Virus record (IMG/VR): IMGVR_UViG_3300031521_000017
DNA length: 44,987 nt
Source of the DNA: a virus
Reading direction: 5' to 3' (one strand)
The notes below the pieces were generated by a model. The model was not told the DNA's origin. It did not search any database and saw nothing but the letters and a program-made list of their open reading frames with translations. The translations under genes and the position numbers were made by a program. How positions within the stretch are numbered: the stretch's first letter is position 1; each line of letters opens with the position of its first letter. Of this stretch, positions 17,406-36,750 are shown piece by piece.

Positions 17406-17412
17406 AGTTTTG

Positions 17413-17515: not shown

Positions 17516-17556
17516 GTATCTACGAGGTAAGAGGAACACGAACTTAGGAGCCAGAC

Positions 17557-17670
17557 ATGAGCAAGAACACCAGCCCCGCGCACGTTGTTCTCACTGCCGA
17601 GAAGGTCATGGAGATTGACCTTAAGAACCTTCAGACGAAGATGGCTTCGCGTAAGGTGCGTGTGAAGTAA
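17557..17670 (+). CDS. 37-aa basic peptide (MSKNTSPAHVVLTAEKVMEIDLKNLQTKMASRKVRVK)
   Basis: AGGAG ribosome-binding site; lies downstream of the island promoter. Confidence 0.35.
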   Translation: MSKNTSPAHVVLTAEKVMEIDLKNLQTKMASRKVRVK

Positions 17671-17951
17671 GGAATAAGTAAGGGCCGAGCCACCAAGTCC
17701 TAAGGGCTTGACTGCCGACGGGCGGTGAGGTACTATCGACGGATGGTACCTTGTGGGGCGTGATTAGTGACCTCGGGAGCGGGAGATATGGTACCCCGCA
17801 CATTGACAAGAGGATAGTAGGAGAGAAGAGTACACCCGCGGGAGAAAAAGCCTCTCCTGTTTAAACCATTCGCAGGATAGCTAACAGCGAAAGTGAAGGG
17901 TCTGACTTCAGTGAGTGGGATTGCAACCTAATCACCCCTTCTACTATCCCC

Positions 17952-17980
17952 TTGTCAGTGTCAAAGAACTATGCTACAAT
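17952..17980 (+). promoter_or_regulatory. promoter TTGTCA-N17-TACAAT
   Basis: Shares the TGCTACAATGAACTTACAGG -10 and start region with the promoter at 23949. Confidence 0.5.
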
Positions 17981-18027
17981 GAACTTACAGGAAACGCGGT
18001 GGGAGCCGCAGACAGAAGGAGCCTGAA

Positions 18028-18171
18028 ATGTCCACAGGTCGCAAGAACAATCTGGCTGCTCGTATCAAAGCTTTCGAGAACATGGGCAAGACCAAGATGG
18101 TCGGCGGACGCGTTGTATCTGGGACTACTGACAACGGCGCTTTCCACAAGCCCGGCTCGCAGAAGAAGTAG
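18028..18171 (+). CDS. 47-aa basic protein ending FHKPGSQKK (paralog of 35195..35374)
   Basis: GAAGGAG ribosome-binding site; the C-terminal FHKPGS(Q/N)KK is shared with a second gene 17 kb away. Confidence 0.45.
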   Translation: MSTGRKNNLAARIKAFENMGKTKMVGGRVVSGTTDNGAFHKPGSQKK

Positions 18172-18178
18172 GCGTAGC

Positions 18179-18418
18179 ATGGAGCACTACTCTCGCGGTT
18201 TTGCCGATGGGCGGTACGATCGTGGTTATTATGCCCCTCCGATTTGCGCTTCTGGATTCAGACCAAACCCTTACCACCGGGCCGAGTACATTGAAGGCTA
18301 CTGGGCGGGAATTCGCGCACGTCGCGCGGCTCAGTACCGCTCCTTCTACTCCGGGTATCGCGCAGGCTACGCTGCGGGGTACTGGGCAGGACGGAGGGAC
18401 TCGTACTACTACTACTAG
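18179..18418 (+). CDS. 79-aa Tyr/Gly/Arg-rich low-complexity protein (GYRAGYAAGYWAGRRDSYYYY)
   Basis: ORF with a repetitive G-Y-R/A composition. Confidence 0.4.
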   Translation: MEHYSRGFADGRYDRGYYAPPICASGFRPNPYHRAEYIEGYWAGIRARRAAQYRSFYSGYRAGYAAGYWAGRRDSYYYY

Positions 18419-18441
18419 TACATACTCCAAGAAAAGCACCC

Positions 18442-18475
18442 AAGAGACAATCTCAGAAAGTTGAGATTGTCTCTT
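18442..18475. terminator. 14-bp perfect hairpin AAGAGACAATCTCA-GAAAGT-TGAGATTGTCTCTT
   Basis: Hairpin only; flanked by a weak U-tract on the minus strand; could terminate transcripts from either direction. Confidence 0.45.
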
Positions 18476-18485
18476 GACATTTCGA

Positions 18486-18503
18486 CGCGCCGTGGGCGGC
18501 GCG
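18486..18503. repeat. GC palindrome CGCGCCG-TGGG-CGGCGCG followed by AAAATCT (module 2)
   Basis: Palindrome family member. Confidence 0.6.
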
Positions 18504-18511
18504 AAAATCTG

Positions 18512-18540
18512 ACAGTATCATACAATCGAGTATTTGTCAA
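18512..18540 (-). promoter_or_regulatory. predicted leftward promoter (minus strand TTGACA-N17-TACTGT)
   Basis: Same geometry as modules 1, 4 and 5. Confidence 0.4.
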
Positions 18541-18584
18541 GAGGAAAACTCAAAAATTATTTAGAATTAATTTTGCCTGAAACC

Positions 18585-18613
18585 TTGCTATCTTCTATCT
18601 GGTTTGCTATGCT
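18585..18613 (+). promoter_or_regulatory. island-type promoter CCTGAAACC-TTGCTA-N17-TATGCT
   Basis: Conserved context. Confidence 0.5.
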
Positions 18614-18648
18614 TAGCCTACGAAAAGCTACTAAGAAAGGAATTGGTC

Positions 18649-19326
18649 ATGGTTACTCCTCAGAATGTGATGAGTTACTTGGACAAGTTCTGTGACAGTT
18701 TCCAGAGCCTTACCTATTCGGACTTCGATACCGCTATTCAGCCCCTCAAAGATGCAATGGCAGCAGGGGAAGTTCCTCCCTTCGAGACTGCCTTTGGATG
18801 CACTAAAGGCGTCCTTATCTTTAAAGGTTGCGACTTCGTTGTGAAGATTCCTTTTGTTGGGGTTGCCAGTAGCTATTCGAGGTATTGCAAGTATACTGGC
18901 TCGAATAGCACAAATGGTTGGGACTACTGCCAGCGAGAGGTAGAAATCTACGAAGCTGCTAAAGAAGTAGGTGTAGCCAGTTTCCTCGCTGAGACCAAGT
19001 TGGTCGGATATGTCAAAGGGCATCCCATCTATACTCAGTCTCTTGTAGCGAATATCGGCAAAGCGGGATGTTATACTAGAGGTACAACCCCCAAGGTAGA
19101 GAGGCAAGCACGCCGTCTGCAAAGAGCAAGAACAACAGGTCAAGCGCATATGTGGGAGAATCTTCTTACTGCCATGATAGACACTTGTGGATTCCGCCTC
19201 ACCCAGCGATTCATGAACTTCTGTATCGCGCAAAAAACAGGGTCAGATTGGCATGATGGTAACTTCGGTCTTATCCCTCACACCACCGCTATCGTATTCT
19301 GCGATTACACTGGATATCGCAGATAA
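18649..19326 (+). CDS. 225-aa hypothetical protein
   Basis: ORF downstream of the island promoter; ATG with AGAAAGG upstream. Confidence 0.5.
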   Translation: MVTPQNVMSYLDKFCDSFQSLTYSDFDTAIQPLKDAMAAGEVPPFETAFGCTKGVLIFKGCDFVVKIPFVGVASSYSRYCKYTGSNSTNGWDYCQREVEIYEAAKEVGVASFLAETKLVGYVKGHPIYTQSLVANIGKAGCYTRGTTPKVERQARRLQRARTTGQAHMWENLLTAMIDTCGFRLTQRFMNFCIAQKTGSDWHDGNFGLIPHTTAIVFCDYTGYRR

Positions 19327-19363
19327 CAAAAACCAGTAAAATCCTATTGGCACGGATTTTGCT

Positions 19364-19379
19364 GGCCCGCACGCGGGCC
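19364..19379. repeat. GC palindrome GGCCCGC-AC-GCGGGCC followed by AAAATTTTTTT (module 3)
   Basis: Family member; preceded by a second small hairpin AAAATCC...GGATTTT (19338-19360). Confidence 0.6.
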
Positions 19380-19464
19380 AAAATTTTTTTGTCAATACTT
19401 TAGAGTTAGATTTTTGTGGAGATTTTGTTAACTCAAGATTAATTAGAATTATTCCTAAAATCCC

Positions 19465-19493
19465 TTGTGTTGGTCAGTCCTGCATGGTAAGAT
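19465..19493 (+). promoter_or_regulatory. island-type promoter CCTAAAATCCC-TTGTGT-N17-TAAGAT
   Basis: Conserved context; followed by about 480 nt with no convincing ORF. Confidence 0.45.
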
Positions 19494-19915
19494 GGTTTTG
19501 TTGAGAGGGAAGCATCAAGGAGTTGAGAGCAAGTCCTACTGGAAAATCGGGTCGCTCTCTGAAACAAAGAGACTCGCGAGTAGGGTACTTCTAAGGCGGA
19601 CTCCTTCTCCTCTCAACACATTGAAAAGAGAATGCTTGCCAATGTGAGAACCCACTCCACTACTAGGCCCAGGGCTGCAAAACTTCCTCCTCTGCTGTCC
19701 TCCCCGAACGACGAGAAAAGGCTCACTCAGAAAATACCTCTGGTGACTTGAGGAAGTCCAAGTATGCAAGCATTCTCTTTCTAATGTACATTGACAAGAG
19801 GATAGTGTAAGGGGACAGTCTTCCTAGGGCGCGGCCGTGAGTCCCTACCTAACATCACCTAGTTTCTGGAGTCATGCCCAGAGCGAAGTTGCAGCAGAAA
19901 AAATACACTATTCTC

Positions 19916-19944
19916 TTGTCAGTGTCACACCGATGTGATACAAT
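19916..19944 (+). promoter_or_regulatory. promoter TTGTCA-N17-TACAAT
   Basis: Same TCTTGTCAGTGTCA...TACAAT form as the promoter at 17952. Confidence 0.5.
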
Positions 19945-19991
19945 AAAGGCACAGTAAAAGGGCAGGGATGCCCACAAGAAAAGGAGTCAAA

Positions 19992-20366
19992 ATGGCCGAC
20001 ACTCGCATCACCAAGAAGGACCGTTTCGCCCAGATGAAGAACATCGTTCTGGATGGCGTGTTTGTTGACGCCGAGGCAGACCTGCGGGAAGAGCTGGTCG
20101 CGTTCATCGACCACGAGGTCGAGCTGCTTGACAAGCGCGCGGGTACGAGCGGAAAGCCCACGAAGGCTCAGATTGAAAACGAGAAAATCAAGGTCAACAT
20201 CCTTGCGGCTCTCACGGGGTCTGAGGACGGTCTGAGGGCCACGGACGTTGGAGTCCTGATGGACATTCCGGTTCAGAAGGCAACGGCCCTGCTCAAGCAG
20301 ATGGTGGACGATGGAACCATCACCCGCGAGATGATCAAAAAGGTGGCAATGTTCAAGGTCGCCTAA
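19992..20366 (+). CDS. paralog A of a small K/A-rich protein family with a winged-helix-like C-terminus
   Basis: AAAGGAG ribosome-binding site; alignable by eye to 23563, 24626 and 40975 (TKKDRF... / ...GLRATDVGVLMDIPVQKATALLKQMVDDGTITREMIKKVAMFKV). Confidence 0.55.
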   Translation: MADTRITKKDRFAQMKNIVLDGVFVDAEADLREELVAFIDHEVELLDKRAGTSGKPTKAQIENEKIKVNILAALTGSEDGLRATDVGVLMDIPVQKATALLKQMVDDGTITREMIKKVAMFKVA

Positions 20367-20487
20367 CCTCTACGGTACTCTACAACGGAAGGTAGATCCA
20401 AGTACCTGCTGACAGTACGGGCAGGAGCCAGAATTTCGATTTAAGGAGGTGAGTCCACGTTCTAGACAACAAATAGATTTTAGTGTA

Positions 20488-20540
20488 GGACTCCCCACTT
20501 GGTCAAGCCTTGTGGGGAGTTTTGTTTTATTTTTTTTTCT
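20488..20540 (+). terminator. strong rho-independent terminator
   Basis: GGACTCCCCAC...GTGGGGAGTTTTGTTTTATTTTTTTTT. Confidence 0.7.
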
Positions 20541-20565
20541 AGAAAGTTGGCATGAAATTTGCTGG

Positions 20566-20583
20566 CGCGCCGCCCACGGCGCG
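20566..20583. repeat. GC palindrome CGCGCCG-CCCA-CGGCGCG followed by AAATTTTT (module 4)
   Basis: Family member. Confidence 0.6.
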
Positions 20584-20591
20584 AAATTTTT

Positions 20592-20620
20592 ACTATAACA
20601 CACCAGGCCAACTTTGTCAA
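20592..20620 (-). promoter_or_regulatory. predicted leftward promoter (minus strand TTGACA-N17-TATAGT)
   Basis: Nearly identical to module 5 (TTGACAAAGTTGGCCTGGTGTGTTATAGTAAAAATTTCGC versus TTGACAAAAGTGGCTCAGTGTGTTACTGTAAAAATTTCGGC). Confidence 0.5.
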
Positions 20621-20665
20621 GAGAAAAACCAGAATTATTTTTCTTTTTTTCTTCTCCTGAAACCC

Positions 20666-20694
20666 TTGTCGCCTTGCCGCACCTGTGGTACAAT
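20666..20694 (+). promoter_or_regulatory. island-type promoter CCTGAAACCC-TTGTCG-N17-TACAAT
   Basis: Conserved context. Confidence 0.5.
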
Positions 20695-20728
20695 CAACAG
20701 ACAACAGACCACAACAGAAAGCGAAACA

Positions 20729-20998
20729 ATGGCAACCGGAACGAACAACATTACAGAACTGCCCATGTCCGAAGATTCCAAAATGTGGAACTTCGTTGGG
20801 TACACTGTCCTATTCTTCATCATGGCAGGCCAAGCACTTTCCGCAGTTAATGTCCTGTGGGGTTCGCTTGCGTATCTTGTGTGCAACGTGCTTGCTATTT
20901 GGCGCACATTCTCACTACGTCGCCCAATGGCAGACAAGGTGCGGGACGTTATGTGTTTTGGAGTAACGTCCACAATTCTCATTACGAAATTTCTCTAG
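20729..20998 (+). CDS. 89-aa small membrane protein (2 transmembrane helices)
   Basis: ATG downstream of the promoter; hydrophobic stretches FVGYTVLFFIMAGQALSAV and LAYLVCNVLAIW. Confidence 0.45.
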   Translation: MATGTNNITELPMSEDSKMWNFVGYTVLFFIMAGQALSAVNVLWGSLAYLVCNVLAIWRTFSLRRPMADKVRDVMCFGVTSTILITKFL

Positions 20999-21005
20999 AA
21001 TCTTC

Positions 21006-21034
21006 TTGACCTCCTCGCGCAAGCCTGTTACACT
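21006..21034 (+). promoter_or_regulatory. promoter TTGACC-N17-TACACT
   Basis: Shares its -10 and start context TACACTAGACC with the promoter at 21973. Confidence 0.45.
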
Positions 21035-21068
21035 AGACCAGTCAAAGAAACCAACCGAAAGGTCCATC

Positions 21069-21806
21069 ATGGCTCGCAAGTCTCCCGCTCTCGCACTTGT
21101 GGTAGATGTCGAAACCTGCGGAGGTTTTGGCTCTCCTCATGTGTACGACCTTGGATTTGCGGTGGTCAATCCTAAGACTGCCGAGATTGTCGAATCGCAT
21201 TCCCTCCTCATTCCTGAAGTGTTCTACGGAATGTCTAAGGAGATGAATACCTGCTACTATGTGGAGAAGCTGCCGCAGTATATCGCGGGTATCGAGGAGG
21301 GTTCTTGGACAGTCACGCCGTTCTGGACTGCTTGGAACCTCGTGCGAAACACGATGCGAAAGTATGGTATCCGCAAGGTGTATGCCTATAACTGTGGCTT
21401 CGACCGTGGCGCACTTGACAGTACCATTAAGGCGATGACGTGCAACAAGTGGTCGCACTTCTTCCCCAAGGGTACAGAGTATTGCGACATTTGGCATATG
21501 GCTTGCCAGACCATCATGAGCCAGCGAAACTTCGTTAAGTTTTGCAACCGTCATGGGTATGTCTCGGATGCGGGAAATATCCGAACGTCTGCGGAGGTGT
21601 GCTACGCTTACATTACCAGACAGCCACACTTCGAGGAGTCACATACGGGGCTGGAAGATGTTCTCATCGAAGCTGCCATTCTCGCGCATGTTCTTCGCAC
21701 CAAGCGCGGCAAGGTGGACGAAAGTCTGACCGCTATGCCGTGGAAGATTCCGCAAGTTGTGCGGAAGGAGATGCAGAGAGCGCAAGGAATGTCAACCCTG
21801 TTCTAA
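21069..21806 (+). CDS. DEDDh-family 3'-5' exonuclease (DnaQ / RNase T / oligoribonuclease-like fold)
   Basis: Exo I motif LVVDVETCG, Exo II motif YAYNCGFDRGAL, Exo III motif H-x4-D (SHTGLEDVLIEAAIL); about 245 aa. Confidence 0.6.
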   Translation: MARKSPALALVVDVETCGGFGSPHVYDLGFAVVNPKTAEIVESHSLLIPEVFYGMSKEMNTCYYVEKLPQYIAGIEEGSWTVTPFWTAWNLVRNTMRKYGIRKVYAYNCGFDRGALDSTIKAMTCNKWSHFFPKGTEYCDIWHMACQTIMSQRNFVKFCNRHGYVSDAGNIRTSAEVCYAYITRQPHFEESHTGLEDVLIEAAILAHVLRTKRGKVDESLTAMPWKIPQVVRKEMQRAQGMSTLF

Positions 21807-21812
21807 AAAAGG

Positions 21813-21837
21813 TCTCCCGAAAGGGAGATTTTTTTTC
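21813..21837. terminator. bidirectional rho-independent terminator AAAAAA-GGTCTCCC-GAAA-GGGAGA-TTTTTTTT
   Basis: Hairpin flanked by an A-run upstream and a T-run downstream. Confidence 0.7.
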
Positions 21838-21873
21838 TCAAAAAAACACTTGACAAATCTATGGGAAAATGCG

Positions 21874-21891
21874 CGGCGCGTGGACGCGCCG
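21874..21891. repeat. GC palindrome CGGCGCG-TGGA-CGCGCCG followed by AAATTTTT (module 5)
   Basis: Family member. Confidence 0.6.
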
Positions 21892-21899
21892 AAATTTTT

Positions 21900-21928
21900 A
21901 CAGTAACACACTGAGCCACTTTTGTCAA
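21900..21928 (-). promoter_or_regulatory. predicted leftward promoter (minus strand TTGACA-N17-TACTGT); its transcript would run through the palindrome into the bidirectional terminator (about 90-nt RNA)
   Basis: Geometry as in modules 1, 2 and 4; a terminator lies 60-90 nt downstream on the minus strand. Confidence 0.45.
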
Positions 21929-21972
21929 GCAAAATCCGCAGAAAAGAAATCTTTTTTTTTTGCCCAAAACCC

Positions 21973-22001
21973 TTGCTATTGTCAACTAGTCAGCGTACAC
22001 T
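21973..22001 (+). promoter_or_regulatory. island-type promoter CCCAAAACCC-TTGCTA-N17-TACACT
   Basis: Conserved context. Confidence 0.5.
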
Positions 22002-22041
22002 AGACCTACAAGAGAACAACCCGTCAACAACAGGAGTTAAC

Positions 22042-22491
22042 ATGCCGTGCAAGAAAATCTTCTTCGACCTCGATGGAACGGTCTATCCTCTGTATGACCA
22101 AGAGGGATGGTTGGACAAACTTCACGCTAGTGACCCTTCTGCTTATGCGGTCGAAGATACTATGGTCCCCTCGGAGGAACTTCTTGACGCTCTCTGCGAC
22201 CTCATGGGCGCGGGATATGAAATCGGCGTTATCTCTTGGCTCGCGCGCAACGCCTCCAAAGAATACGAGCAGGAGACACGCGAAGTCAAGAGAGCATGGA
22301 TAAAGAAGTTTCTTCCTATGGCTTCTGAAATCCATATCGTCCGATATGGCACACCCAAGCAAGGTGTTATCCGCAAGCAGCCACTGGCGATTCTCGTCGA
22401 TGACGATGCGAACGTGCGCGCGGCATGGTGTCATGGTCTTACAATCGACCCGACCAAGAATCTCATAAAGAGGTTGCGCTCGCTCATCTAG
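22042..22491 (+). CDS. HAD-superfamily phosphatase (149 aa)
   Basis: Motif I FFDLDGTV near the N-terminus; motif IV ILVDDDANV near the C-terminus; GGAG ribosome-binding site. Confidence 0.55.
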   Translation: MPCKKIFFDLDGTVYPLYDQEGWLDKLHASDPSAYAVEDTMVPSEELLDALCDLMGAGYEIGVISWLARNASKEYEQETREVKRAWIKKFLPMASEIHIVRYGTPKQGVIRKQPLAILVDDDANVRAAWCHGLTIDPTKNLIKRLRSLI

Positions 22492-22536
22492 TGTGCTATA
22501 CTCTATACAACGACAAACAAGAAAGAAGGTTCGACA

Positions 22537-22791
22537 GTGAAAACCAACGAAATCATATTCGCCGCCGATTGTTCAGAGAACATCATAAATGCTCTGGTGG
22601 CGGTGTACCAGAATTCAACATACCAAGGAGGTCAGCATGACCTCACCACTTGCCGCATATGCCATGCGGAGCAAAACTGGGGTGGTAATGGAAGGGGTTG
22701 GAACCTAACGCACAAACCTCTGTGGAATGGTCAGCCCTGCCCAGTCGGAACGCTGGAAACTCTTCTCCAAGAGTTTTACAAGGAGGGATAG
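22537..22791 (+). CDS. 84-aa hypothetical protein (GTG start)
   Basis: ORF; start uncertain. Confidence 0.3.
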   Translation: MKTNEIIFAADCSENIINALVAVYQNSTYQGGQHDLTTCRICHAEQNWGGNGRGWNLTHKPLWNGQPCPVGTLETLLQEFYKEG

Positions 22792-22793
22792 AG

Positions 22794-23051
22794 ATGGGCA
22801 ATCCCTGCCAACAATGCAGACTCGACAATGGTAAATGCTCCTACTGGGACGAAGACAACCCCGATAACAACTTCTCACTCTCCACCGGCTATGATGAAGA
22901 TGGGGATTGTATGGCAGAAGATGCTGACTTCCCCGGCGACATATGCGAGAATTACCAAGCTGACCTCGCGGGAGACTACTGCGACCGCTGCGGCAATTAT
23001 CTCGGGAGTGAAGATGACGACGAAGAAAGCGAGTGTATCTGCAATGATTGA
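22794..23051 (+). CDS. 85-aa highly acidic Cys-rich protein (MGNPCQQCRLDNGKCSYWDEDNPDNN...DDDEESECICND)
   Basis: AAGGAGGGATAGAG ribosome-binding site; about 30% D/E; CxxC pairs. Confidence 0.45.
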   Translation: MGNPCQQCRLDNGKCSYWDEDNPDNNFSLSTGYDEDGDCMAEDADFPGDICENYQADLAGDYCDRCGNYLGSEDDDEESECICND

Positions 23052-23319
23052 TGTCGCTTGCGCCAACTATAACGGGCGCCATCGTTCTTGTGAGTGTTTC
23101 GACCTCGCAAGTGAGGATGACATTTCCAAAATGCTCTGCGACCACTTGGGAACTTGTGATGGATGGGGGAGTGAAACCTCCTGCATTAACTTCAAAGAGG
23201 CCGAAAGTTACTTCGAAAAAGATGAAGATGATGAATGCGATGGGAACTGTCCTTGCATCGACCTTTGTGATGAGGGTTCTGGAATGGTTCGAGAGACAAA
23301 ATGGCCTAAGATCTTCTGA
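23044..23319 (+). CDS. 91-aa acidic Cys-rich protein 2 (MIDVACANY...DEDDECDGNCPCIDLCDEG...)
   Basis: ATGATTGATG overlap with the upstream gene; acidic and cysteine-rich. Confidence 0.45.
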   Translation: MIDVACANYNGRHRSCECFDLASEDDISKMLCDHLGTCDGWGSETSCINFKEAESYFEKDEDDECDGNCPCIDLCDEGSGMVRETKWPKIF

Positions 23320-23351
23320 AATGCATCAATTTCATGTAATTATGCATGAAA

Positions 23352-23371
23352 TTGGCCCGCGTGCGGGCCAA
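23352..23371. repeat. GC palindrome TTGGCCCGC-GT-GCGGGCCAA followed by AATTT (module 6)
   Basis: Family member. Confidence 0.6.
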
Positions 23372-23477
23372 AATTTCAAATATCGTGCCAAAACCACCTT
23401 TTTTCGCCCAAAACAGCGAAAAATCTTGATTAATCTTCATTTCCCGAAATTAATTTAAGTTTATTTGCTATTTGGGG

Positions 23478-23506
23478 TTGTTTCTGCCGCAGAATAATGC
23501 TACAAT
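23478..23506 (+). promoter_or_regulatory. promoter TTGTTT-N17-TACAAT with an upstream CCCGAAA element
   Basis: Conserved -10 TGCTACAATGG. Confidence 0.4.
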
Positions 23507-23562
23507 GGTTTTGTTGAGAAAGAAGGAAGTGAGGCGGGAGCCTCCAAACGAAAGGCGTGACC

Positions 23563-23916
23563 ATGAACAAGAAGATGACCAAGCGCGAGATGTTCACCGC
23601 TGCTATCGCAATTGTTGCGGCTGCGAATGTCCCCGGAACCCCTGCTGTGGTGGAGGGTTTGAAGCACGAGCTGGAGTTGCTCAACAAGAAGTCCGCAGAT
23701 GGCAAGGGCAGCGCCAAGCACGCTGCCGAGGTTCGTGCCAACATGGACAAGGTTGTGACTGTCCTGTCTGATGAGGGCATCCGCGCCGCAGATGTTGGAA
23801 CTCTCGCAGACTTCTCGATTCAGAGGACTACGGCCCTCCTGAAGAAGCTTGTGGACAGCGGCGAGGTTGTCAGGGACGAGGTTAAGAAGGTAGCCTACTT
23901 CTCTCTCGCGGAGTAA
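23563..23916 (+). CDS. paralog B of the K/A-rich winged-helix-like family
   Basis: Alignable to 19992 (MNKKMTKREMF... / ...GIRAADVGTLADFSIQRTTALLKKLVDSGEVVRDEVKKVAYFSL). Confidence 0.55.
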   Translation: MNKKMTKREMFTAAIAIVAAANVPGTPAVVEGLKHELELLNKKSADGKGSAKHAAEVRANMDKVVTVLSDEGIRAADVGTLADFSIQRTTALLKKLVDSGEVVRDEVKKVAYFSLAE

Positions 23917-23948
23917 GCAAAAAGGGGAGAGAAATCTCCCCCAATCGC

Positions 23949-23977
23949 TTGTCCTAGTCGTGCCAATGTGCTACAAT
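23949..23977 (+). promoter_or_regulatory. promoter TTGTCC-N17-TACAAT
   Basis: Shares 20 nt (TGCTACAATGAACTTACARG) with the promoter at 17952. Confidence 0.5.
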
Positions 23978-24027
23978 GAACTTACAAGAAACAACGAACG
24001 CCCTACGGGGCAAGAAGGAGAGTTAGC

Positions 24028-24273
24028 ATGGAGTTTACTGTTATTGACACTTATGACTGCGAAACATCGCGTTTCGACACGTTGGACGCCGCGAGAGCGT
24101 ATGCTAAATCAGTCGCAGAGTGGCTGGTCGAGAGAGAGTATTTCGGTGAAACAGTCACAATCTCTATGATTGTTCCTTTTGAGGCTTGTGAAACTATCAG
24201 GCCGACGCCGGCTCCACCGATTGAGTTCTGCACTTGTCAGACAGTAGTGGTTACCACGACTGTCTGCGGATAG
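24028..24273 (+). CDS. 81-aa hypothetical protein
   Basis: GAAGGAGAG ribosome-binding site. Confidence 0.4.
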   Translation: MEFTVIDTYDCETSRFDTLDAARAYAKSVAEWLVEREYFGETVTISMIVPFEACETIRPTPAPPIEFCTCQTVVVTTTVCG

Positions 24274-24383
24274 CGAGTCCTACCCTACATTTAAATAAAT
24301 GGTTAACAGGTAGCTGCTGTTATTAAATGTCAGTTGTAAAACTCAGCCCCGCAGTCTCACCCTGAGGTTGAGGGTGAGATTTG

Positions 24384-24403
24384 TTGGCTCGCAAGCGAGC
24401 CAA
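24384..24403. repeat. palindrome TTGGCTCGC-AA-GCGAGCCAA followed by AATTTGACAG (module 7); preceded by the hairpin TCTCACCCT-GAGGTTG-AGGGTGAGA (24355-24379)
   Basis: Family member. Confidence 0.55.
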
Positions 24404-24524
24404 AATTTGACAGAAAACATCCTATAGGCATTTTTTGCCTTACCTCGTGACCCTTCTATATAGACTATAAAATTCCCAATATAGACCCCATAAGCCTTAT
24501 ATCGCCTAGCTCAAAAGATTTCTA

Positions 24525-24553
24525 TTGACACTTTTTTTGAAATGTGTTATAAT
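24525..24553 (+). promoter_or_regulatory. consensus sigma-A promoter TTGACA-N17(TGTGT)-TATAAT with an AAAAGATTT UP-like element
   Basis: One of three near-identical promoters (24525, 25181, 25912). Confidence 0.6.
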
Positions 24554-24625
24554 GAGATATAAGGAAAAAGGGAATGCATAAAAGGTGTGTTCCACAGAAT
24601 AAACAGAGAGGTTCGGTGTATTAAG

Positions 24626-25000
24626 GTGACGAAGGTTACGAAGCGCAACCAGTTTGTTGCTGTCCAGGAGATCCTGACTGGTCTCGGCGAGACGGATCGA
24701 GCAGACTTCATCGGTGCTCAGATTGCTCTTATCGACAAGCGCAAGACTGCAGACCGCAAGCCCACGAAGGCTCAGGAGGCTAATGCTGAGATCAAGGAGA
24801 GTATTGTCGAGACTCTCATTGGCTTTGATGGTCTGACTGCGACTGAGGTTGCAGGTACCGAGGACATCTCAGTCCAGAAGGCCAGCCAGCTGCTTACGCA
24901 GCTTGTGGCTGCGGAGATTGTTATCCGCGTCGAGGGCAAGGGCAAGGAGAAGACTAAGTTCAGCCTCGCTAATCGTGCGGAGGTTGACGCCGCAGAGTAA
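24626..25000 (+). CDS. paralog C of the K/A-rich winged-helix-like family (GTG start; an alternative GTG lies at 24587)
   Basis: With GTG at 24626 the N-terminus MTKVTKRNQF aligns with paralogs A, B and D; C-terminal part ...GLTATEVAGTEDISVQKASQLLTQLVAAEIVIRVEGKGKEKTKFSL. Confidence 0.5.
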   Translation: MTKVTKRNQFVAVQEILTGLGETDRADFIGAQIALIDKRKTADRKPTKAQEANAEIKESIVETLIGFDGLTATEVAGTEDISVQKASQLLTQLVAAEIVIRVEGKGKEKTKFSLANRAEVDAAE

Positions 25001-25180
25001 GTTATCTTAACCGAGAGGTTCCTCCGAAGTCCGAGGATTAAATAGGCAGGCTCCAGGTCCAGCCTCTCCACAAAGATAAGTTAGTTTTTTGGCCCTTAGT
25101 TCTACAAGGGACAGGCCATCCCGCCACGAGTCGCGACTCAGTGGAACTAACGGCTAAAAAGCTAACTTAAAAGATTTTGT

Positions 25181-25209
25181 TTGACAAAAAATAAAAAATA
25201 TGTTATAAT
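25181..25209 (+). promoter_or_regulatory. consensus sigma-A promoter TTGACA-N17-TATAAT
   Basis: AACTTAAAAGATTTTGTTTGACA upstream context. Confidence 0.6.
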
Positions 25210-25250
25210 AGAGATAACGAAAAAAGAAAAATCTAAAAAGGAGCTGCCGC

Positions 25251-25646
25251 ATGCGCTACGATCTCGATGGTAAGAATATCAACATCCCTGACAACTTCAT
25301 TGACACCAGCATGCACAATCTCGGCATCACTCGTCAGGAAGCTATTGACCTCTACCTGTCAGACAATGACTTCATTACTAACGATGAGATTGTCGCCATG
25401 ACAGTTAAGGCTAAGGCCGCAGGCACTGGTGCTAAGGCAACGGGGGAGAAAGTTGCCCACAAGGCTCCAGAGCGCAAGCCCGATCTCGTTAAGCGTGCAG
25501 TTATTGCTGCCCTTTCTGAATTCATCACGGGCACTGAGCACGTTGAGAATGTCACTATTACCAATATCGAGCGAATGATTGCTTTCGAAATTGGTGGAGA
25601 TAAGTTCGAAGTCGTGCTTACCAAGAAGCGTAAGCCCAAGGAGTAA
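25251..25646 (+). CDS. 131-aa hypothetical protein
   Basis: AAAGGAG ribosome-binding site. Confidence 0.5.
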   Translation: MRYDLDGKNINIPDNFIDTSMHNLGITRQEAIDLYLSDNDFITNDEIVAMTVKAKAAGTGAKATGEKVAHKAPERKPDLVKRAVIAALSEFITGTEHVENVTITNIERMIAFEIGGDKFEVVLTKKRKPKE

Positions 25647-25911
25647 TTACAATATGGGCCGGATATGACACGAAGTCATAGAAGAGACTTTCCGGGAGTA
25701 GGAGATCGGTACCCTACAATTTAATTATACCAGCAGGTCCAGTTTGCGACAGAGTAATGGGGCGGAACGATCATCCGCACTCCTGCTGATATAAAATCTT
25801 TTAAGTTGGCTTCTCAGTGGTGACGCGTAACCCGCCGTTGTCTCAGCTCTGGATGGCCATTCAACTGAGCCTTTTCAAAAAAATTTGAGAAGTCAACTTA
25901 AAAGATTTTCA

Positions 25912-25940
25912 TTGACAACTTTTCAAAAATGTGTTATAAT
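25912..25940 (+). promoter_or_regulatory. consensus sigma-A promoter TTGACA-N17-TATAAT
   Basis: CAACTTAAAAGATTTTCATTGACA upstream context. Confidence 0.6.
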
Positions 25941-25980
25941 AAGATATAGAAAAAAACAAAAGAAAGAAATGAGGAATACC

Positions 25981-26187
25981 ATGCGCGAGGTCTTCTACGT
26001 AATGCCATGTCCTGGCTCATTCACTCCGATTAATCTTGAAGGTGATGATTTCGTTCGACTCCCTGATGGTGTTCATGCAGCCACAGGTATCGGCACAGTC
26101 TTTATCGCTATGACACTTACTGGTCGTGCATTCTACGCCATTGAGGGTTGCCTCGTAATTGTAGACTTGGATGAGGTACTCGACTAA
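25981..26187 (+). CDS. 68-aa hypothetical protein
   Basis: GAGGAATACC ribosome-binding site. Confidence 0.4.
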   Translation: MREVFYVMPCPGSFTPINLEGDDFVRLPDGVHAATGIGTVFIAMTLTGRAFYAIEGCLVIVDLDEVLD

Positions 26188-26372
26188 TGCATGAGTATAA
26201 AATCCTCGTCACAGAGTGGGATTTGTCTTGCGGAGACCCTAACTCTTGGGTGAAGTTCCGCATGACAAATATCTTCAATATTCCAGCAAAGACTCTCGGT
26301 GATGCTCTTGGTAGGCTCGCAAAGTCTATGGGTTATGGCATTATCGAGTATGAAGTTCTTGCAATATATTAA
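26187..26372 (+). CDS. 61-aa hypothetical protein
   Basis: TAATG-coupled ORF. Confidence 0.35.
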   Translation: MHEYKILVTEWDLSCGDPNSWVKFRMTNIFNIPAKTLGDALGRLAKSMGYGIIEYEVLAIY

Positions 26373-27357
26373 CCATCAACGTCCTCTCCTATAGACCTGA
26401 GACGAAAAGGGTTTAGATTATGGAGGTTAAGGAAAGCTGATGTTTCCCCGGGAAGGATCATCAAGAGTCCCAAGTAACTTGACAGGCTTGGCTTTGAAGT
26501 GCGGTCCTTGAATCCGCACACTCTTGAGAGAAAAGGTGCGCGAAGAGTAAACTGCGTTGAATGTGGCTCACAGTCTGGCTGCAGCCTATGGGCATGGTAG
26601 GGTAGCGCCTTCACCGGTTAAGAAAAAACGCATCCTGATCGCTGGCCAAATGGGAGGCCCGCAGGATATAGTATTAAAGGTGCGCGATAGGCTTTCAGCG
26701 TTAAATGTGGGAAGTCAGGTCCACCCGCAGCCTACGGACTGATCTACCCGTTAAAGTGGATCTTGTGAGTGAATCTCCATTATAAAGAGTTGGGATACTA
26801 ATTATGGACCCAGCAACCGCCAGTAAGCTTGGGATAGGGATGAAGAATCAGGCCCCAATGCGGTTTGGACGCGTGAGCAGCAGCGAATAGCCATATATTG
26901 AGCCTTGGCTGCCACCTATTAGTGCGAAAAGGGAACTCTAAGTGAGTCAATTAGCCTACGACTTTAAATGCGGCTCAGTTACTGCTTGAGGAATAGCTAC
27001 CTCAGGAAAGCACAGCTTCGTTCCCCTGACTTTTAGCTTAAGATAGAAGCCTAGCACAAACTCAGGTTCCGCAAAGAGTAGAAAAGGTCGGAAAACATAT
27101 CTTATTGGGTGCTTCCTTCGAGATCCTGATGATAAAAATGAAGGGATCGAAGGACTATATCCCGCAGCTTGGTAGTGGTAGTGGTGTATGGTGCATACTA
27201 TAAACGAGGTGTGAGGTTCGAATCGTCCCTATGACAACGACCACCTGTCTTCGAAGCAGGTGGTCTAGCTACGATTATACCACAAAACCTGCACAATGTC
27301 AAGTTTTTTCTTCGACTTTAGTTATTGAATCTTTTTTTCTAAAATTCCCGAAATAAC
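26373..27357 (+). ncRNA. candidate large structured non-coding RNA (about 1 kb ORF-free, GC-balanced, internally repetitive, ending at a strong terminator)
   Basis: No ORF of at least 60 aa in frame with any signal. Internal repeat AAGGTGCGCGA...GCGTTRAATGTGG...CYGCAGCCTAYGG occurs twice, with a third partial copy. Many local hairpins, for example GTGCGG-TCCTTGAAT-CCGCAC and GACCACCTGTCTTCGAAGCAGGTGGTC. A tRNA T-loop-like GGTTCGAATC is present at 27207. Strand is inferred from the downstream terminator. Confidence 0.3.
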
Positions 27358-27396
27358 AGAAAGCCCTAGTCTATAAAAGACTAGGGCTTATTTTTA
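27358..27396. terminator. bidirectional terminator AGCCCTAGTCT-ATAAA-AGACTAGGGCT followed by TATTTTTA
   Basis: 11-bp perfect stem with T-rich flanks. Confidence 0.65.
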
Positions 27397-27681
27397 TACT
27401 TTTGATTCTGTATCTTCAAGTTTAATTGGACTAGACTCAATAGTAAGATTATCTATATGATGTATGTTCCAAGTAGCAGGGTCATTATTATCTGAATCTA
27501 AAACCTCAGCTATGCGGACTTGGGGTATATATTTAGCATCCCCAGACATCTCCATCATAGCTTGTATATTCTTATAAGCATTAGGTCTACTGAAGAAGGC
27601 TCCGCAGAATATCTCCTGTTTAACCTTATTTTCATTGTCTAAAACAAGAGCATAGGCAATGTAAATCTTTTCCATTGTCAT
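27394..27681 (-). CDS. 95-aa hypothetical protein
   Basis: ORF ending at the bidirectional terminator. Confidence 0.4.
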   Translation of the reverse strand: MTMEKIYIAYALVLDNENKVKQEIFCGAFFSRPNAYKNIQAMMEMSGDAKYIPQVRIAEVLDSDNNDPATWNIHHIDNLTIESSPIKLEDTESKV

Positions 27682-27884
27682 AAAGCCTCCTAAATTTTAA
27701 TAAAATGTGCATCAGTATACCCAAGAGGTAGTTTACCTTAGAAATTGGAAATGAGATTAGAATTATCTATATTAGAGAGGAGAAAAGTATTTCAAAAAGG
27801 AGACGAATACGGTAAAAAATTAAAGTGAAAGTTGATAGGGACTAGTCCTCCACACCCTCCCTATTAGGGAGATTTGTTAACATT

Positions 27885-29292: not shown

Positions 29293-29395
29293 TATTATTA
29301 AATGAACTGTCTTTTTAACAGATTGACTTTTCTTAACAAACTACCTACATTTTTTTAACATTTTATCTACTTTTTTTTAACACTTTATCATAGGA
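29293..29395. repeat. iteron cluster A: four copies of a TTTTTTTAACA-containing unit at 18-22 bp spacing
   Basis: TAACA cores at 29316, 29334, 29356 and 29378. Confidence 0.6.
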
Positions 29396-30020
29396 TATTT
29401 GTTATGTCAGTCACATACTTCTTTGTTTTCCATACTCCTTTCTTTGTAACTCTCTCATCTCTATGCTTTAGTAAGCCTAAGTCTTGAAGTTCATCTAAAG
29501 CATCTATAAGAATATGAGAATTATTGCTTGTATTAGTAGAGATACCAATTTCTTCTTTGATTTTGCTAGTATGATACAATATTTGATTTTGTTTATAAGA
29601 TAGTTCACAAAATCTTACATACATACTAATAATATGCGGAGTATTTGTCTCTACTAATTTAACTAATACATCATTTGGAACTAAATAAGCAAACTCATTA
29701 CCAATTAATAGTAATTCAAATTTACTTAGCTTCTTCAATCCCACTAAATACAAATCTTGCAAATTCTTAAATCTCATACTTGCAGTTTGTCTAGATATGT
29801 TTAACGCGGAAGCTAATTTCACAAAACTCACATCACTAGCATTTACATATCTGCGTCCATCTCTCATTGGTAGACTGATAGATTGCAAATATCCATACAT
29901 TAAATCATTATAGAGTTTGTCTGAAGTATACTCAACACTACTAGGTATTTGCCTAGAATTTGGTCTAATAGATAATCCCATCAGTCTCCTTTCTACTATT
30001 ATCGTAATTCTATTATACAA
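29388..30020 (-). CDS. 210-aa helix-turn-helix DNA-binding protein flanked by iterons; candidate replication initiator (RepA_N / DnaD-like organisation) or autoregulated regulator
   Basis: Helix-turn-helix-like segment SFVKLASALNISRQTASMRFKNL; C-terminal FAYLVPNDVL...ILIDALDELQDLGLLK is reminiscent of firmicute plasmid/phage initiator N-domains; iteron clusters lie at both ends. Confidence 0.45.
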   Translation of the reverse strand: MYNRITIIVERRLMGLSIRPNSRQIPSSVEYTSDKLYNDLMYGYLQSISLPMRDGRRYVNASDVSFVKLASALNISRQTASMRFKNLQDLYLVGLKKLSKFELLLIGNEFAYLVPNDVLVKLVETNTPHIISMYVRFCELSYKQNQILYHTSKIKEEIGISTNTSNNSHILIDALDELQDLGLLKHRDERVTKKGVWKTKKYVTDITNIL

Positions 30021-35674: not shown

Positions 35675-36205
35675 ATGGATACAAAAGGCGTGTATATTGG
35701 GAGATTTAATCCAATACACGTTGGACACGGGCGGGTAGTCCGGACCATGCTCAATGAGTGTGGGTTAAAAAATTCAGTGATTGTAATAGGTTCGAGTAAC
35801 GCAGAGTTTTCTGCTCGAAACATTTTCAATTACTTGGACCGGACCTCTTTTATTAAAAAGCTATTCCCAAATTCCAACGTGATAGGATTGCCTGATTTCC
35901 CAGACTCGAACGAAGCCTGGCTCGCTAATCTGGATTCTATTTTGGAGTTTGGGAATTTTCATATTCAAGACACTATGCTATATACTGGAGACGCCAATGA
36001 TCTTCAAGCGCAACTATTCACACAGGCAAATCGCCCCATTAGGATAGTAGAGAGAGAAGAAATGCCAGGAGTTTCTGGGACAAACGTCCGCGAAGCATTG
36101 CTGAATAAACAATGGGATTTAGCAGCTTCTATGCTTGACCCCATAGTCGCAAATGATATTATTAAGGAGAGTAAATGCAATCTGAATATAAACGGACTCT
36201 GTTAA
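35675..36205 (+). CDS. nicotinamide/nicotinate mononucleotide adenylyltransferase (NadM-type NMNAT)
   Basis: (H/T)xGH nucleotidyltransferase motif GRFNPIHVGH at the N-terminus; about 176 aa; adjacent to the NAMPT and Nudix genes. Confidence 0.6.
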   Translation: MDTKGVYIGRFNPIHVGHGRVVRTMLNECGLKNSVIVIGSSNAEFSARNIFNYLDRTSFIKKLFPNSNVIGLPDFPDSNEAWLANLDSILEFGNFHIQDTMLYTGDANDLQAQLFTQANRPIRIVEREEMPGVSGTNVREALLNKQWDLAASMLDPIVANDIIKESKCNLNINGLC

Positions 36206-36750
36206 AAGAAACTCCTTTTCTGCACTTAAATGAGGTTGAATACTTCGACCATGAGGGTGTATTAAAGAAATGGTACGGAGTTAGTAGAAAAAACAGCACT
36301 CCTGCAGTGCAAGTGGCAGCGATCACAGAAGAGAACGAACTTGTTCTTGTCACTCAGTATCGTCCCTATATTGATAGTATGACTATTGAATTGCCTGCGG
36401 GATTAATGGATGTGCCGGGTGAGTCTGTAATTGATTGTGCGGAGCGCGAATTGCTCGAAGAGACTGGATTCCAAGGAGATGGTAATACATTACATGCTCT
36501 TGGAGGCGAGCGTGGACTTACAGTTTCAGCCGGACTTACAGATGAGCGTATTCATCTTGTTATTGTTACTGGGTGTGTAAAAGTTGCAGATCCATATACA
36601 AATGAAGGAACCCATCCTTTTCTTGTCCCTTTACGGGATGCAGAGGAAATTCTGTATCCTTTCACTTCAACAGGGAAGAAATTCAATATCAGTTTTGGCC
36701 TATTTGGCACCTTGTATATAATTCGAAACTACCTTAATGGAGGGCTATAA
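36175..36750 (+). CDS. Nudix hydrolase (ADP-ribose pyrophosphatase-like)
   Basis: Nudix box GLMDVPGESVIDCAERELLEETG; overlaps the NMNAT gene by 31 nt. Confidence 0.6.
   Translation: MQSEYKRTLLKETPFLHLNEVEYFDHEGVLKKWYGVSRKNSTPAVQVAAITEENELVLVTQYRPYIDSMTIELPAGLMDVPGESVIDCAERELLEETGFQGDGNTLHALGGERGLTVSAGLTDERIHLVIVTGCVKVADPYTNEGTHPFLVPLRDAEEILYPFTSTGKKFNISFGLFGTLYIIRNYLNGGL

Follow-up and report, generated by a model that had tools for sequence, protein, structure and literature searches.

Does a stretch of about 1 kb that holds no gene for a protein encode a structured RNA of the phage that carries it, and if so, of what kind? The question is raised by positions 26373-27357 of a 44,987-nucleotide stretch of viral DNA (IMG/VR record IMGVR_UViG_3300031521_000017, the whole of which is called the window here). 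The window contains terminase, portal and related genes, and its source is an uncultured large phage. Taken as a whole, positions 26373-27265 of the plus strand are most probably a modular non-coding RNA gene of about 0.9 kb, a reading drawn from sequence comparison. This core of the initial annotation, a phage gene for a non-coding RNA, is upheld by the promoters and terminators of related phages, the covariation of a repeated module and a strand bias in G·U pairs. Overall, its observations were confirmed in part and its interpretation was supported in part, as detailed below.

The locus and its relatives

The segment 26373-27265 is non-coding. All six frames between 26300 and 27420 contain 17-25 stop codons each, and no ORF was found across 26373-27357, as had been claimed. 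TAA, TAG and TGA are mixed in every frame (6 of 6), so that reassignment of one stop codon cannot restore an ORF and is ruled out as an explanation. A decayed coding sequence is ruled out as well, as the three-base periodicity of the region is 0.3, compared with 3.2-12.9 in most neighboring ORFs, and no meaningful tblastx match was found elsewhere in the window. The body of the RNA extends over about 890 nt of the plus strand, beginning at the orf61 stop codon and finishing with the 3' stem-loop (26373..27265). Its GC content (46.7% over the whole length, 49.6% in the first half) is above the figure of about 35% that holds for most of the window. The reported contrast with AT-rich surroundings is correct in this sense, but the whole of 15.5-27.3 kb, coding and non-coding, has about 50% GC. 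Two small overlapping plus-strand ORFs, orf68 (25981-26187) and orf61 (26187-26372), lie 5' of the RNA and serve as context only. Their periodicity is weak (1.7), neither was found in the related loci, and orf61 had no homologue except itself among 5.8 billion proteins. Sixteen contigs of the same phage are 100% identical across the region and thus provide zero variation.

Relatives were located by means of two conserved flanking proteins together with motif scans, revealing a family of eleven related metagenomic phages in which this position holds a non-coding RNA locus. In all of them the locus is flanked by an ScpB-like protein (29388-30020, minus strand, in the window) and by orf131 (25251-25646). 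The window has the same arrangement, with the RNA 3' of the orf131 homologue, on the same strand, and converging on the operon of the ScpB-like gene. Searches by blastn and megablast against 50,697 phage records yielded no match, and a motif scan of viral contigs using the exact flanks of the window found nothing. The nearest cultured relatives, Phass-1 and the Enterococcus phages EF1 and VRE9, have only distant proteins in common with the source phage and no module; the more distant ScpB-like relatives (L053 and L058-L065) also have no module. The 14 loci (L036-L049) retrieved with the motif of the hairpin/promoter junction were unrelated and were discarded.

The module and the 3' end

The initial annotation had described an internal module of about 70 nt present in duplicate. 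A 35-nt direct repeat is indeed found at 26532 and 26676, and R1, a covariance model built from homologues of the module, identifies two copies of about 65 nt on the plus strand, copy 1 at 26529..26592 (50.6 bits, E = 6e-15), whose three helices appear in the MFE fold, and copy 2 at 26673..26738 (62.9 bits, E = 6e-19). Both exceed the value of 40 bits above which a match was counted as a module, chance matches to the invariant letters reaching 19-27 bits. Nine loci (L021, L022, L025, L027 and L031-L035) that came up in motif scans of metagenome and genome contigs were rejected as high-GC chance matches in this range that show none of the family's other features. The partial third copy suggested near 26960 has lost ground. 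The corresponding segment, AAGUGAG..CUUUAAAUGCG..CACAGCUU at 26935..27023 of the plus strand, scores 7.3 bits (E = 0.66), which is below threshold and the joint best in 12 kb, tied with minus-strand 24256-24313, and it is at best a degenerate remnant.

The module forms a three-way junction with about 25 invariant core nucleotides (GGU|GCGC...GCGU-UAAAU-GYGG...CCGC-A-GCC), from which outer stems extend that vary freely. Sixteen copies were found across ten phages: R1 identifies 15 copies in nine phages, 14 of them scoring 41-67 bits and the weak third copy of L050 scoring 20.5 bits, and one further copy in L066 (48.4 bits). Every copy is on the same strand. The number per phage ranges from 0 to 3, as the R1 search found no canonical module in L013/L070, with 80-300 nt of unrelated sequence between neighboring copies.

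Covariation supports both the junction and the 3' stem-loop. In the alignment of modules, 87.5% of the cells are paired, compared with 29-49% when the partners are slid, and both sides have changed in seven pairs (26 cells). The covariation score is 0.255 versus 0.130 and was reached in 0 of 500 shuffles, a significance inflated by the small size of the family and the relatedness of its sequences. The compensatory differences between the two copies in the window, previously judged by eye, are located in the P3 stem, and the homologues covary in the same way. In addition, the module cells include 43 G·U against 9 A·C pairs, and 87.5% are paired on the plus strand versus 75.1% on the reverse strand. 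The excess of G·U over A·C identifies the plus strand as the RNA strand, and the tRNA-like matches described below are on the strand of the modules. The P1 stems are short (3-6 bp), with outer pairs often broken, and the intrinsic stability of the modules is weak (z = +1.6 and -0.5), which would fit a junction that folds only with a partner. The idea that the module is an armless tRNA was rejected, as the invariant part is the junction, the loops differ in both length and sequence, and the tRNA model gives no match to the module. The core sequences had no match in the literature searched, outside of which falls a survey covering 10,006 candidate RNAs of viruses (PMC10690425).

Apart from the modules, conserved pairing is limited to a 5' motif and the 3' hairpin. 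The 5' motif (26385..26426, plus strand) consists of a helix UCUCC/GGAGG, an asymmetric internal loop UAU / AGAUUAU and a variable inner hairpin AGACCU/GGGUUU. It has 74% identity over 76 nt to L014, and in L018 it is located immediately 3' of a consensus promoter. Pairing of the inner hairpin is kept in three phages (AGACCU/GGGUUU, AGUCCC/GGGAUU and CGGGCU/AGUCUG), consistent with the MFE fold; this was read from the aligned sequences, the three-phage MAFFT alignment being too small and slightly misaligned for pair counts. Two conserved blocks follow on the plus strand. GAATAGCCATATATTGAGCCTTGGCTGCC at 26884..26912 has 93% identity over 29 nt to L018 10385-10413, just 5' of the L018 module, and ACTCAGGTTCCGCAAAGAGTAGAAAAGGTCGG at 27060..27091 has 94% identity over 32 nt to L029 5109-5140 (coordinates of the reverse-complemented locus). 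The interior is poorly conserved even among the closest relatives, and the remainder is too diverged for alignment. The RNAs of the family measure about 0.4-1.4 kb and have in common the module, a few blocks of 25-75 nt and the 3' hairpin cassette, in changing combinations; outside the modules they are mosaics of short shared blocks with ordinary folding energies. The numerous strong local hairpins noted initially were not recovered. On the plus strand, 150-nt windows across 26325-27149 give folding z values of about -0.1 to +1.7, values near -2 being confined to the 3' end (27075-27300). One large ornate fold is thus unsupported, and the RNA looks like a chain of modules. A long-range inverted repeat (26661-26672 / 27154-27165) was estimated to be at about chance level and was set aside.

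The 3' stem-loop (27239..27265, plus strand; z = -5.5 on its own) has a 9-bp stem and a 9-nt loop, UC-UUCGAA-G, containing a self-complementary hexamer. In seven aligned phages its cells are 100% paired, and six of the nine pairs are changed on both sides. The hexamer is UUCGAA in five of these seven and in L066, CUCGAG in L030 and AUCGAG in L013, and in L050 and L052 an ordinary terminator takes the place of the stem-loop. The hairpins through which HIV-1 (DIS) and phi29 pRNA dimerize do so by kissing loops. Similar to these, the phage loop has 9 nt in a 2+6+1 layout with a self-complementary hexamer, and the change from UUCGAA to CUCGAG keeps self-complementarity. Unlike HIV-1 DIS, it offers a single double change only, the hexamer of L013 is imperfect, and two relatives have the ordinary terminator. 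Complementary loops would likewise be a property of any sense/antisense pair.

Directly 5' of the stem-loop lies a remnant of a tRNA-like 3' domain (27206..27238, plus strand). The T-loop-like sequence GGTTCGAATC noted initially is present, at 27215-27224 rather than at 27207. The remnant aligns with a tRNA-like element in L029 (44.3 bits with the Rfam tRNA model) and with another in L066 (30.2 bits with that model; 'tRNA-???' by ARAGORN, with an abnormal anticodon loop). Both occupy the same place just 5' of the hairpin, and the RNAs of these two relatives end in a tRNA-like element. At the remnant itself no tRNA was called by ARAGORN, nor by Rfam at E <= 10, and ARAGORN found no tRNA gene in the window. 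In L052 the RNA begins 20 nt past an array of 14 tRNAs, and L017 and L029 have arrays of nine tRNAs upstream on the same strand. The locus is therefore associated with tRNA arrays and tRNA-like elements, and the tie to tRNA-like elements drawn at the outset is borne out through the relatives.

Transcription signals

A consensus sigma-70 promoter, TTGACA-17-TGnTATAAT, is located at 25912..25940 of the plus strand, matching at 12 of 12 positions with an extended -10. No terminator-like site was found on the plus strand between this promoter and 27361, and by sequence a single transcript starting here most likely covers orf68, orf61 and the RNA in the source phage. Since the window has no separate promoter for the RNA, reading it as a long 3' UTR is formally possible. 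The strong 3' terminator reported previously is located at 27361..27389 and, judged from its sequence, functions in both directions: it has a 12-bp stem with T-runs on both strands and closes both the plus-strand unit and the converging minus-strand operon (orf95 onward). Equivalent terminators are found in the relatives.

Several relatives carry what their sequences show as an autonomous promoter-RNA-terminator unit. In three of them the gene is self-contained, with a consensus sigma-70 promoter, an RNA of 0.84-1.2 kb and an intrinsic terminator or stem-loop. L050 has a 12/12 promoter with TG, an RNA of about 1175 nt and a terminator, and L052 has a 12/12 promoter with TG, an RNA of about 840 nt and a terminator followed by T9. 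In L018 there are two plus-strand promoters, and in L066 a promoter is visible in the sequence.

The first reading of the window had overlooked a perfect promoter on the minus strand. This antisense promoter, TTGACA-17-TGGTATAAT at 27274..27302, also matches at 12 of 12 positions with an extended -10 and points into the RNA gene, with a predicted start near 27267 at the foot of the 3' stem-loop. It is kept in L013, L014, L017, L029, L030 and L050, with close variants in L018 and L066 and a variable spacer sequence; among the nine relatives in which the position is covered it is present in eight and absent from L052. In L018 it faces one of the plus-strand promoters across only about 300 nt. 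The cassette of hairpin and antisense promoter is also found behind other early units of the window (17390-17441 and 20566-20620). Neither a terminator nor an ORF was found on the minus strand after this promoter.

Known RNAs, rival explanations and a possible mechanism

The initial annotation had pointed to the large ornate RNAs GOLLD and ROOL, which are borne by phages and prophages, measure several hundred to more than 1000 nt, are often beside or co-transcribed with tRNAs, and have no adjoining gene that they could regulate (PMC5737381). The locus resembles them in being encoded by a phage, in its comparable length, in the lack of a neighboring gene to regulate and in the tRNA arrays or tRNA-like elements of its relatives, the window itself having no tRNA gene. 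However, this kinship found no support. All 4227 models of Rfam 15 gave zero matches in the window at the gathering score, and none on 26000-27700 at E <= 10, GOLLD and ROOL included; these two models also gave no match on the RNAs of L050 and L066 at E <= 10, nor on six further relative loci and window positions 15300-26400 at E <= 1. In addition, the family varies two- to three-fold in length and content, which is not what a conserved multi-junction fold would show, and its members share little beyond a repeated unit of about 65 nt, present in 0-3 copies. Membership in GOLLD or ROOL, even in a diverged form, is thus hardly tenable and already largely refuted, and the RNA belongs to a small family matching no described RNA family in Rfam 15.

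Three further explanations were weighed against a plus-strand non-coding RNA gene. The functional product might be the minus-strand transcript from the promoter at 27302..27274, or a sense/antisense regulatory pair in the style of plasmid copy control or type I toxin-antitoxin systems. The perfection of that promoter, its retention with a variable spacer, the short opposing arrangement in L018 and the fact that the 3' stem-loop would form the 5' end of such a transcript all speak for it. We consider it quite improbable, since the G·U pairs, tRNA-like elements and intrinsic terminators indicate the plus strand, L052 has the RNA without the antisense promoter, the recurrence of the cassette marks it as a general feature of the early region, and the minus strand lacks a terminator or ORF downstream. 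Somewhat less improbable, and still unlikely, is that the transcript is a precursor from which an enzyme such as RNase P or RNase Z excises the junctions and the tRNA-like element, to act as small RNAs in their own right. The modularity of the units, their varying number and order, the poorly conserved spacers, the tRNA-like elements inside the RNA and the co-linearity with tRNA arrays, which require processing, would suit such a precursor, whereas conserved cleavage motifs were not seen at the module borders and the P1 stems are short and often broken.

The locus might also not be an RNA gene at all and instead have a role as DNA, for instance as an origin at which the minus-strand promoter primes replication, or be a decayed tRNA array or junk. 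It lies 2 kb from the ScpB-like/replication-initiator-like gene, a strong promoter is directed into a GC-rich stretch, and nearby arrays of the relatives are similar in size and GC, with a T-loop remnant left in the window. This is very improbable, as covariation with G·U pairs points to selection on RNA pairing and the relatives have dedicated promoters and terminators. Furthermore, iterons and an AT-rich unwinding element are both missing from the region: neither tandem repeats nor repeats of the iteron type were found in 26000-27500 (GC 47%), and an iteron-like region near 27840-27870 lies outside the RNA locus, as in the relatives. The tRNA model does not match the modules either, and what they conserve is the junction rather than the loops. 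Against a plus-strand non-coding RNA gene itself stand the folding energies, which over most of the region are no better than those of shuffled sequence, the poorly conserved interior and the absence of the canonical module from L013/L070.

On the favored reading, the plus-strand RNA would be made early in infection by the host RNA polymerase, a timing suggested by the series of perfect consensus promoters in this block, and in the source phage it would probably be the tail of the transcript from the 25912 promoter. Small structured units make up the chain: a 5' helix with internal loop, two intact junctions with possibly a third that has decayed, several short blocks of conserved sequence, the tRNA-like remnant and the very stable 3' stem-loop. 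By analogy, each junction may recognize one partner independently, the partner being a protein or possibly another RNA or a small ligand. The RNA would then be a multivalent decoy or scaffold that acts on tRNA-related machinery of the host or phage as infection begins. An invariant core whose peripheral stems are free, weak intrinsic stability and the 1-3 copies among phages suggest this decoy or scaffold, which we put forward tentatively as a possibility; the neighborhood holds no identifiable candidate for a partner protein. The tRNA-like element and the stem-loop may define and protect the 3' end, and the conserved antisense promoter may modulate it through head-on polymerase collision or antisense RNA.

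Decoy or sponge RNAs built of repeated units include CsrB/RsmZ, ToxI with the phage pseudo-ToxI, and phage RNA anti-CRISPRs. Similar to these, the phage RNAs would carry several copies of a recognition unit, in varying number, behind a strong promoter. Unlike in CsrB/RsmZ and ToxI, the unit is neither a short hairpin nor a pseudoknot of 34-45 nt repeated in tandem but a 65-nt three-way junction, and its copies are set far apart in unrelated sequence. Mammalian MALAT1/mascRNA and viral tRNA-like structures are cases in which a long RNA acquires its 3' end at a tRNA-like element. L029 and L066 likewise have a non-decoding tRNA-like element at the 3' end, with a remnant in the window; unlike MALAT1/mascRNA, a stable stem-loop follows this element, and the copy in the window has decayed so far that it no longer scores as a tRNA.

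Bacteria and phages have only a small number of large non-coding RNAs (OLE, GOLLD, ROOL, raiA and several others), and each is unusual in biochemistry or structure; RNAs of the GOLLD/ROOL kind reportedly assemble into homo-oligomers, as seen by cryo-EM. The present locus would add an independent family with the genomic habit of GOLLD and ROOL and a different, modular build. The recurring terminator hairpin with an antisense consensus promoter in the early region is a regulatory design that also deserves attention. More speculatively, and rather unlikely in our estimate, the junction of about 65 nt is a new functional RNA core that binds a host protein or metabolite as an aptamer or else acts in catalysis or assembly, and that large environmental phages carry in 1-3 copies on an early tRNA-linked transcript that disarms or hijacks a host system. 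If so, that system could be, for example, a tRNA-targeting defense, the DIS-like self-complementary 3' loop would permit dimerization, and the family would stand next to GOLLD and ROOL as a third lineage of large phage RNAs, with a mechanism of its own. The repeated unit is small, with a sharply defined invariant core, and would be simple to synthesize and probe; the function of tRNA-linked phage RNAs may therefore become approachable by pull-down, in-line probing and cryo-EM.

Genomic setting of the ORF-free region

The source phage is uncultured and at least 126 kb long; genes for a large terminase, a portal, a sigma-like factor and a nicotinamide phosphoribosyltransferase lie in the window, which covers one part of it. 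The phage is distantly related to Phass-1, the 'code 15' gut phage, to EF1 and VRE9 of Enterococcus, to phiCD211 and to other large Bacillota phages of this kind. Over a block of about 12 kb (15.5-27.3 kb) the GC content is about 50%, against about 35% for the genome, and the small plus-strand genes of the block are served by repeated perfect TTGACA-17-TGnTATAAT promoters, which suggests that 15500-27300 is a putative early region. The RNA locus forms the right end of this block, converging on a minus-strand operon with an ScpB-like or winged-helix gene. Elsewhere in the window, the nicotinamide phosphoribosyltransferase gene (36750-38150) is preceded by two ORFs, and L002, an identical contig, shows CTP_transf_like and NUDIX domains in them; 35675-38150 as a whole looks like a phage NAD+ salvage cluster. 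The ScpB-like homologues of more distant phages (contigs L001, 1563-2138, and L053/L054, 7001-7645) are not open under the standard code, which fits stop-codon reassignment; Phass-1, one relative, is classed in the 'code 15 clade'.

The region 26373-27357 has no credible ORF, as the initial annotation had stated. All six frames are closed by 17-25 stops each, and every frame contains all three stop types, so stop-codon recoding does not account for the missing ORF. Its three-base periodicity is 0.3, compared to 3.2-12.9 in most neighbouring genes. The GC content, proposed as about 50% and distinctive, is 46.7%, which is normal across the whole GC-rich block. The duplicated module was recovered at 26532 and 26676 and the 3' terminator at 27361-27389, where it is bidirectional, whereas the supposed third module copy yields just 7.3 bits with R1, the covariance model of the module. 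The T-loop-like GGTTCGAATC is present at 27215-27224 rather than 27207, with no tRNA called. Of the strong local hairpins claimed, only the 3' end shows a clearly negative folding energy, the rest being ordinary (z about -0.1 to +1.7 over 26325-27149, plus strand). A minus-strand promoter of perfect consensus (27302..27274), which points into the region, had been overlooked.

Identity with the large phage-borne RNAs GOLLD or ROOL had also been considered, and no such match was found in window or region by an Rfam 15 scan (4227 models). The scan gave zero matches at gathering score in the window, only terminator look-alikes at E <= 10 in 26000-27700, and no match in the remainder of the GC-rich block. 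The DNA of the region had no match among 50,697 phage records. Neither Rfam nor the literature that could be searched contained a matching family or paper; the family may be hidden in PMC10690425, among its 10,006 viral candidates without names.

A family of eleven phages and its covarying three-way junction

The same phage occurs in 16 metagenome contigs, with the region 100% identical in all. Homologues of the ScpB-like gene (29388-30020, minus strand; 42-59% identity) led to contigs keeping the window layout: the ScpB-like operon, a terminator, an ORF-free gap of 0.5-1.9 kb and then converging small genes. The window's module repeat, its 3' hairpin and its minus-strand promoter recur in the gaps, and its 5' motif in some of them. 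Scans with a motif from the gap alignments added L018, L023/L030, L028 and L029, together with high-GC chance matches scoring 19-27 bits with R1 versus 41-67 bits for the family. A search with orf131 (25251-25646; 44-68% identity), the upstream gene in all relatives, added L066 and L070. Eleven distinct phages are thus represented by the window, L013/L070, L014, L017, L018, L028, L029, L030, L050, L052 and L066. R1 did not find the module in the more distant relatives L053, L058-L065, Phass-1 and VRE9_4.

Fourteen module copies were aligned, a three-way junction was assigned and R1 was built from this alignment. P1 (NNNGGU/GCCNNN) encloses P2 (GCGC plus a variable extension, paired with the extension, one bulged base and GCGU) and P3 (GYGGS/SCYGC), with UAAAU joining P2 to P3 and a single A after P3. 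R1 matched 15 copies in the loci then gathered, on one strand throughout, and one more in L066; the window copies (26529..26592 and 26673..26738) scored 50.6 and 62.9 bits, respectively. Covariation among homologues, suggested earlier as a check, was found: in the model-based alignment 87.5% of cells are paired versus 29-49% with partners slid by 1-3 columns, a large contrast, both-sided changes occur in seven pairs (26 cells), and the covariation score is 0.255 versus 0.130 for shuffles (equalled in 0/500), although these figures overstate independence, given the kinship of the sequences and the use of the structure in fitting the alignment. The 43 G·U cells versus 9 A·C cells indicate that the RNA is the plus strand. 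The window modules are thermodynamically not strong (z = +1.6 and -0.5), which fits a junction that needs tertiary contacts or a partner.

Outside the modules, the 5' motif, the 3' cassette and a few 25-75-nt blocks common to phage pairs, the RNAs are not alignable, even between the window and its closest relatives. The shortest, in L014 and L013, measure about 0.4 kb and the longest, in L017, about 1.4 kb; R1 found no canonical module in L013/L070. GOLLD and ROOL resemble the family in kind and differ from it in build: ROOL is a single ornate fold with six junctions and three pseudoknots (PMC5737381), whereas the present family, as read from the alignments, is apparently a mosaic of small units.

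Predicted transcription units, 3' cassette and tRNA-like elements

L050 has a 12/12 promoter with extended -10, then about 1175 nt free of credible ORFs and, at the end, an intrinsic terminator. L052 has the same order with about 840 nt, its unit beginning 20 nt past the last of 14 tRNA genes. L018 has two consensus promoters with extended -10, the second directly before the 5' motif; in the window this motif (26385..26426) follows the stop codon of orf61, an orphan in the homologue search. In L066, a promoter and a small ORF precede about 900 nt of RNA. L029 and L066 carry a tRNA-like element on the RNA strand, immediately 5' of the 3' hairpin (Rfam tRNA model scores of 44.3 and 30.2 bits), with which the window GGTTCGAATC aligns; ARAGORN reports an aberrant anticodon loop in L066.

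Several further features were observed around these units. The tRNA array of L052 (native 3597-5356), directly upstream of the RNA gene, is broken by an ORF that is A/T-rich and contains an HNH-like CxxC..H motif. Several relatives (L029 4371-4553, L030 2857-3039 and L066 6969-7140, RNA orientation) have, immediately 5' of the RNA, an ORF of about 60 aa that is rich in tryptophan and ends ..W(F/W)ERGWEC..; it is apparently frameshifted in L066, and the window has the orphans orf68 and orf61 instead. L066 has about 500 nt of additional GC-rich, ORF-free DNA (6397-6905) separating its orf131 homologue from the RNA unit's promoter; within this DNA, 6403-6461 is 75% identical to L050 3970-4027, within the L050 RNA. 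The short contigs L009 and L010, independent assemblies, start one base apart (window 26186/26187, the orf61 start codon), and L009 ends at 27273, just past the 3' hairpin; these ends could mark breaks between strain variants or, should the source samples be metatranscriptomes, the ends of transcripts.

The 3' hairpin (27239-27265, z-score -5.5) keeps all pairs in seven phages, with both sides changed in 6/9 pairs. Its 9-nt loop contains a self-complementary hexamer, which reads CUCGAG in L030, an imperfect AUCGAG in L013, and UUCGAA in the other five of these seven phages as well as in L066. The layout recalls dimerisation loops, on the basis of one double change. The minus-strand promoter lies 8 nt beyond the hairpin, and its consensus is kept in 8/9 relatives covering the position, with a varying spacer; L052 alone lacks it. 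The window has this cassette at 17390-17441, 20566-20620 and 27239-27302, in the order plus-strand terminator-like hairpin, 8-9 nt, and minus-strand consensus promoter directed back towards the unit that has just ended; at 17390-17441 an A/T-rich stretch and the following plus-strand promoter come next. Since the cassette of hairpin, antisense promoter and A/T-rich stretch also lies 3' of other early units and is missing in L052, we regard it as a feature of early-region architecture. Antisense control or a polymerase roadblock are possible roles; on our reading, it acts on the 3' end of plus-strand transcripts and does not drive the functional RNA.

Two more GC-rich stretches, 17264-17914 and 19327-19967, lack coding periodicity (1.0 and 0.5) and are probably further non-coding RNAs. 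Their promoters are of the types TTGCAT/TTGTGT-17-TGnTAAGAT and TTGTCA-17-TGnTACAAT, and they share boxes such as ACATTGACAAGAGGATAGT at 17803 and 19789. Apparent long closed helices occur at 19500-19617 and 19625-19780, and 17720-17800 is 77% identical to part of L050.

Possible roles of the RNA

Given the covariation with G·U pairs and the promoters and terminators that relatives have for the RNA, the locus is unlikely to be a replication origin or a decayed tRNA array. A conserved box, GACTAG(T/G)(C/G)C..CCAC, lies between orf95 and orf92 (27838-27872) and recurs in L014 (~660-700), L050 (5440-5520) and L052 (5860-5990), all reverse-complemented, and in L018 (12530-12600). In relatives it is followed by short direct repeats, e.g. 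CAAGGATTCT x3 or GAGAGTTTTA x5, and as a putative replication origin or regulatory iteron site it is more plausible than the RNA locus. Processing into separate small RNAs, self-assembly and catalysis are alternative roles for the RNA. A junction core that stays invariant while its peripheral stems vary freely, low intrinsic stability and a copy number that differs between phages are typical of an autonomous recognition site, and we therefore tentatively favour a multivalent decoy or scaffold.

The evidence well supports a modular structured RNA of a new family, phage-encoded, early-expressed and found in association with tRNA-like elements or tRNA genes. By a mechanism we infer only tentatively, the RNA might serve as a multivalent decoy or scaffold whose target, engaged early, would be a factor of the host or the phage, possibly one of tRNA metabolism or defence.
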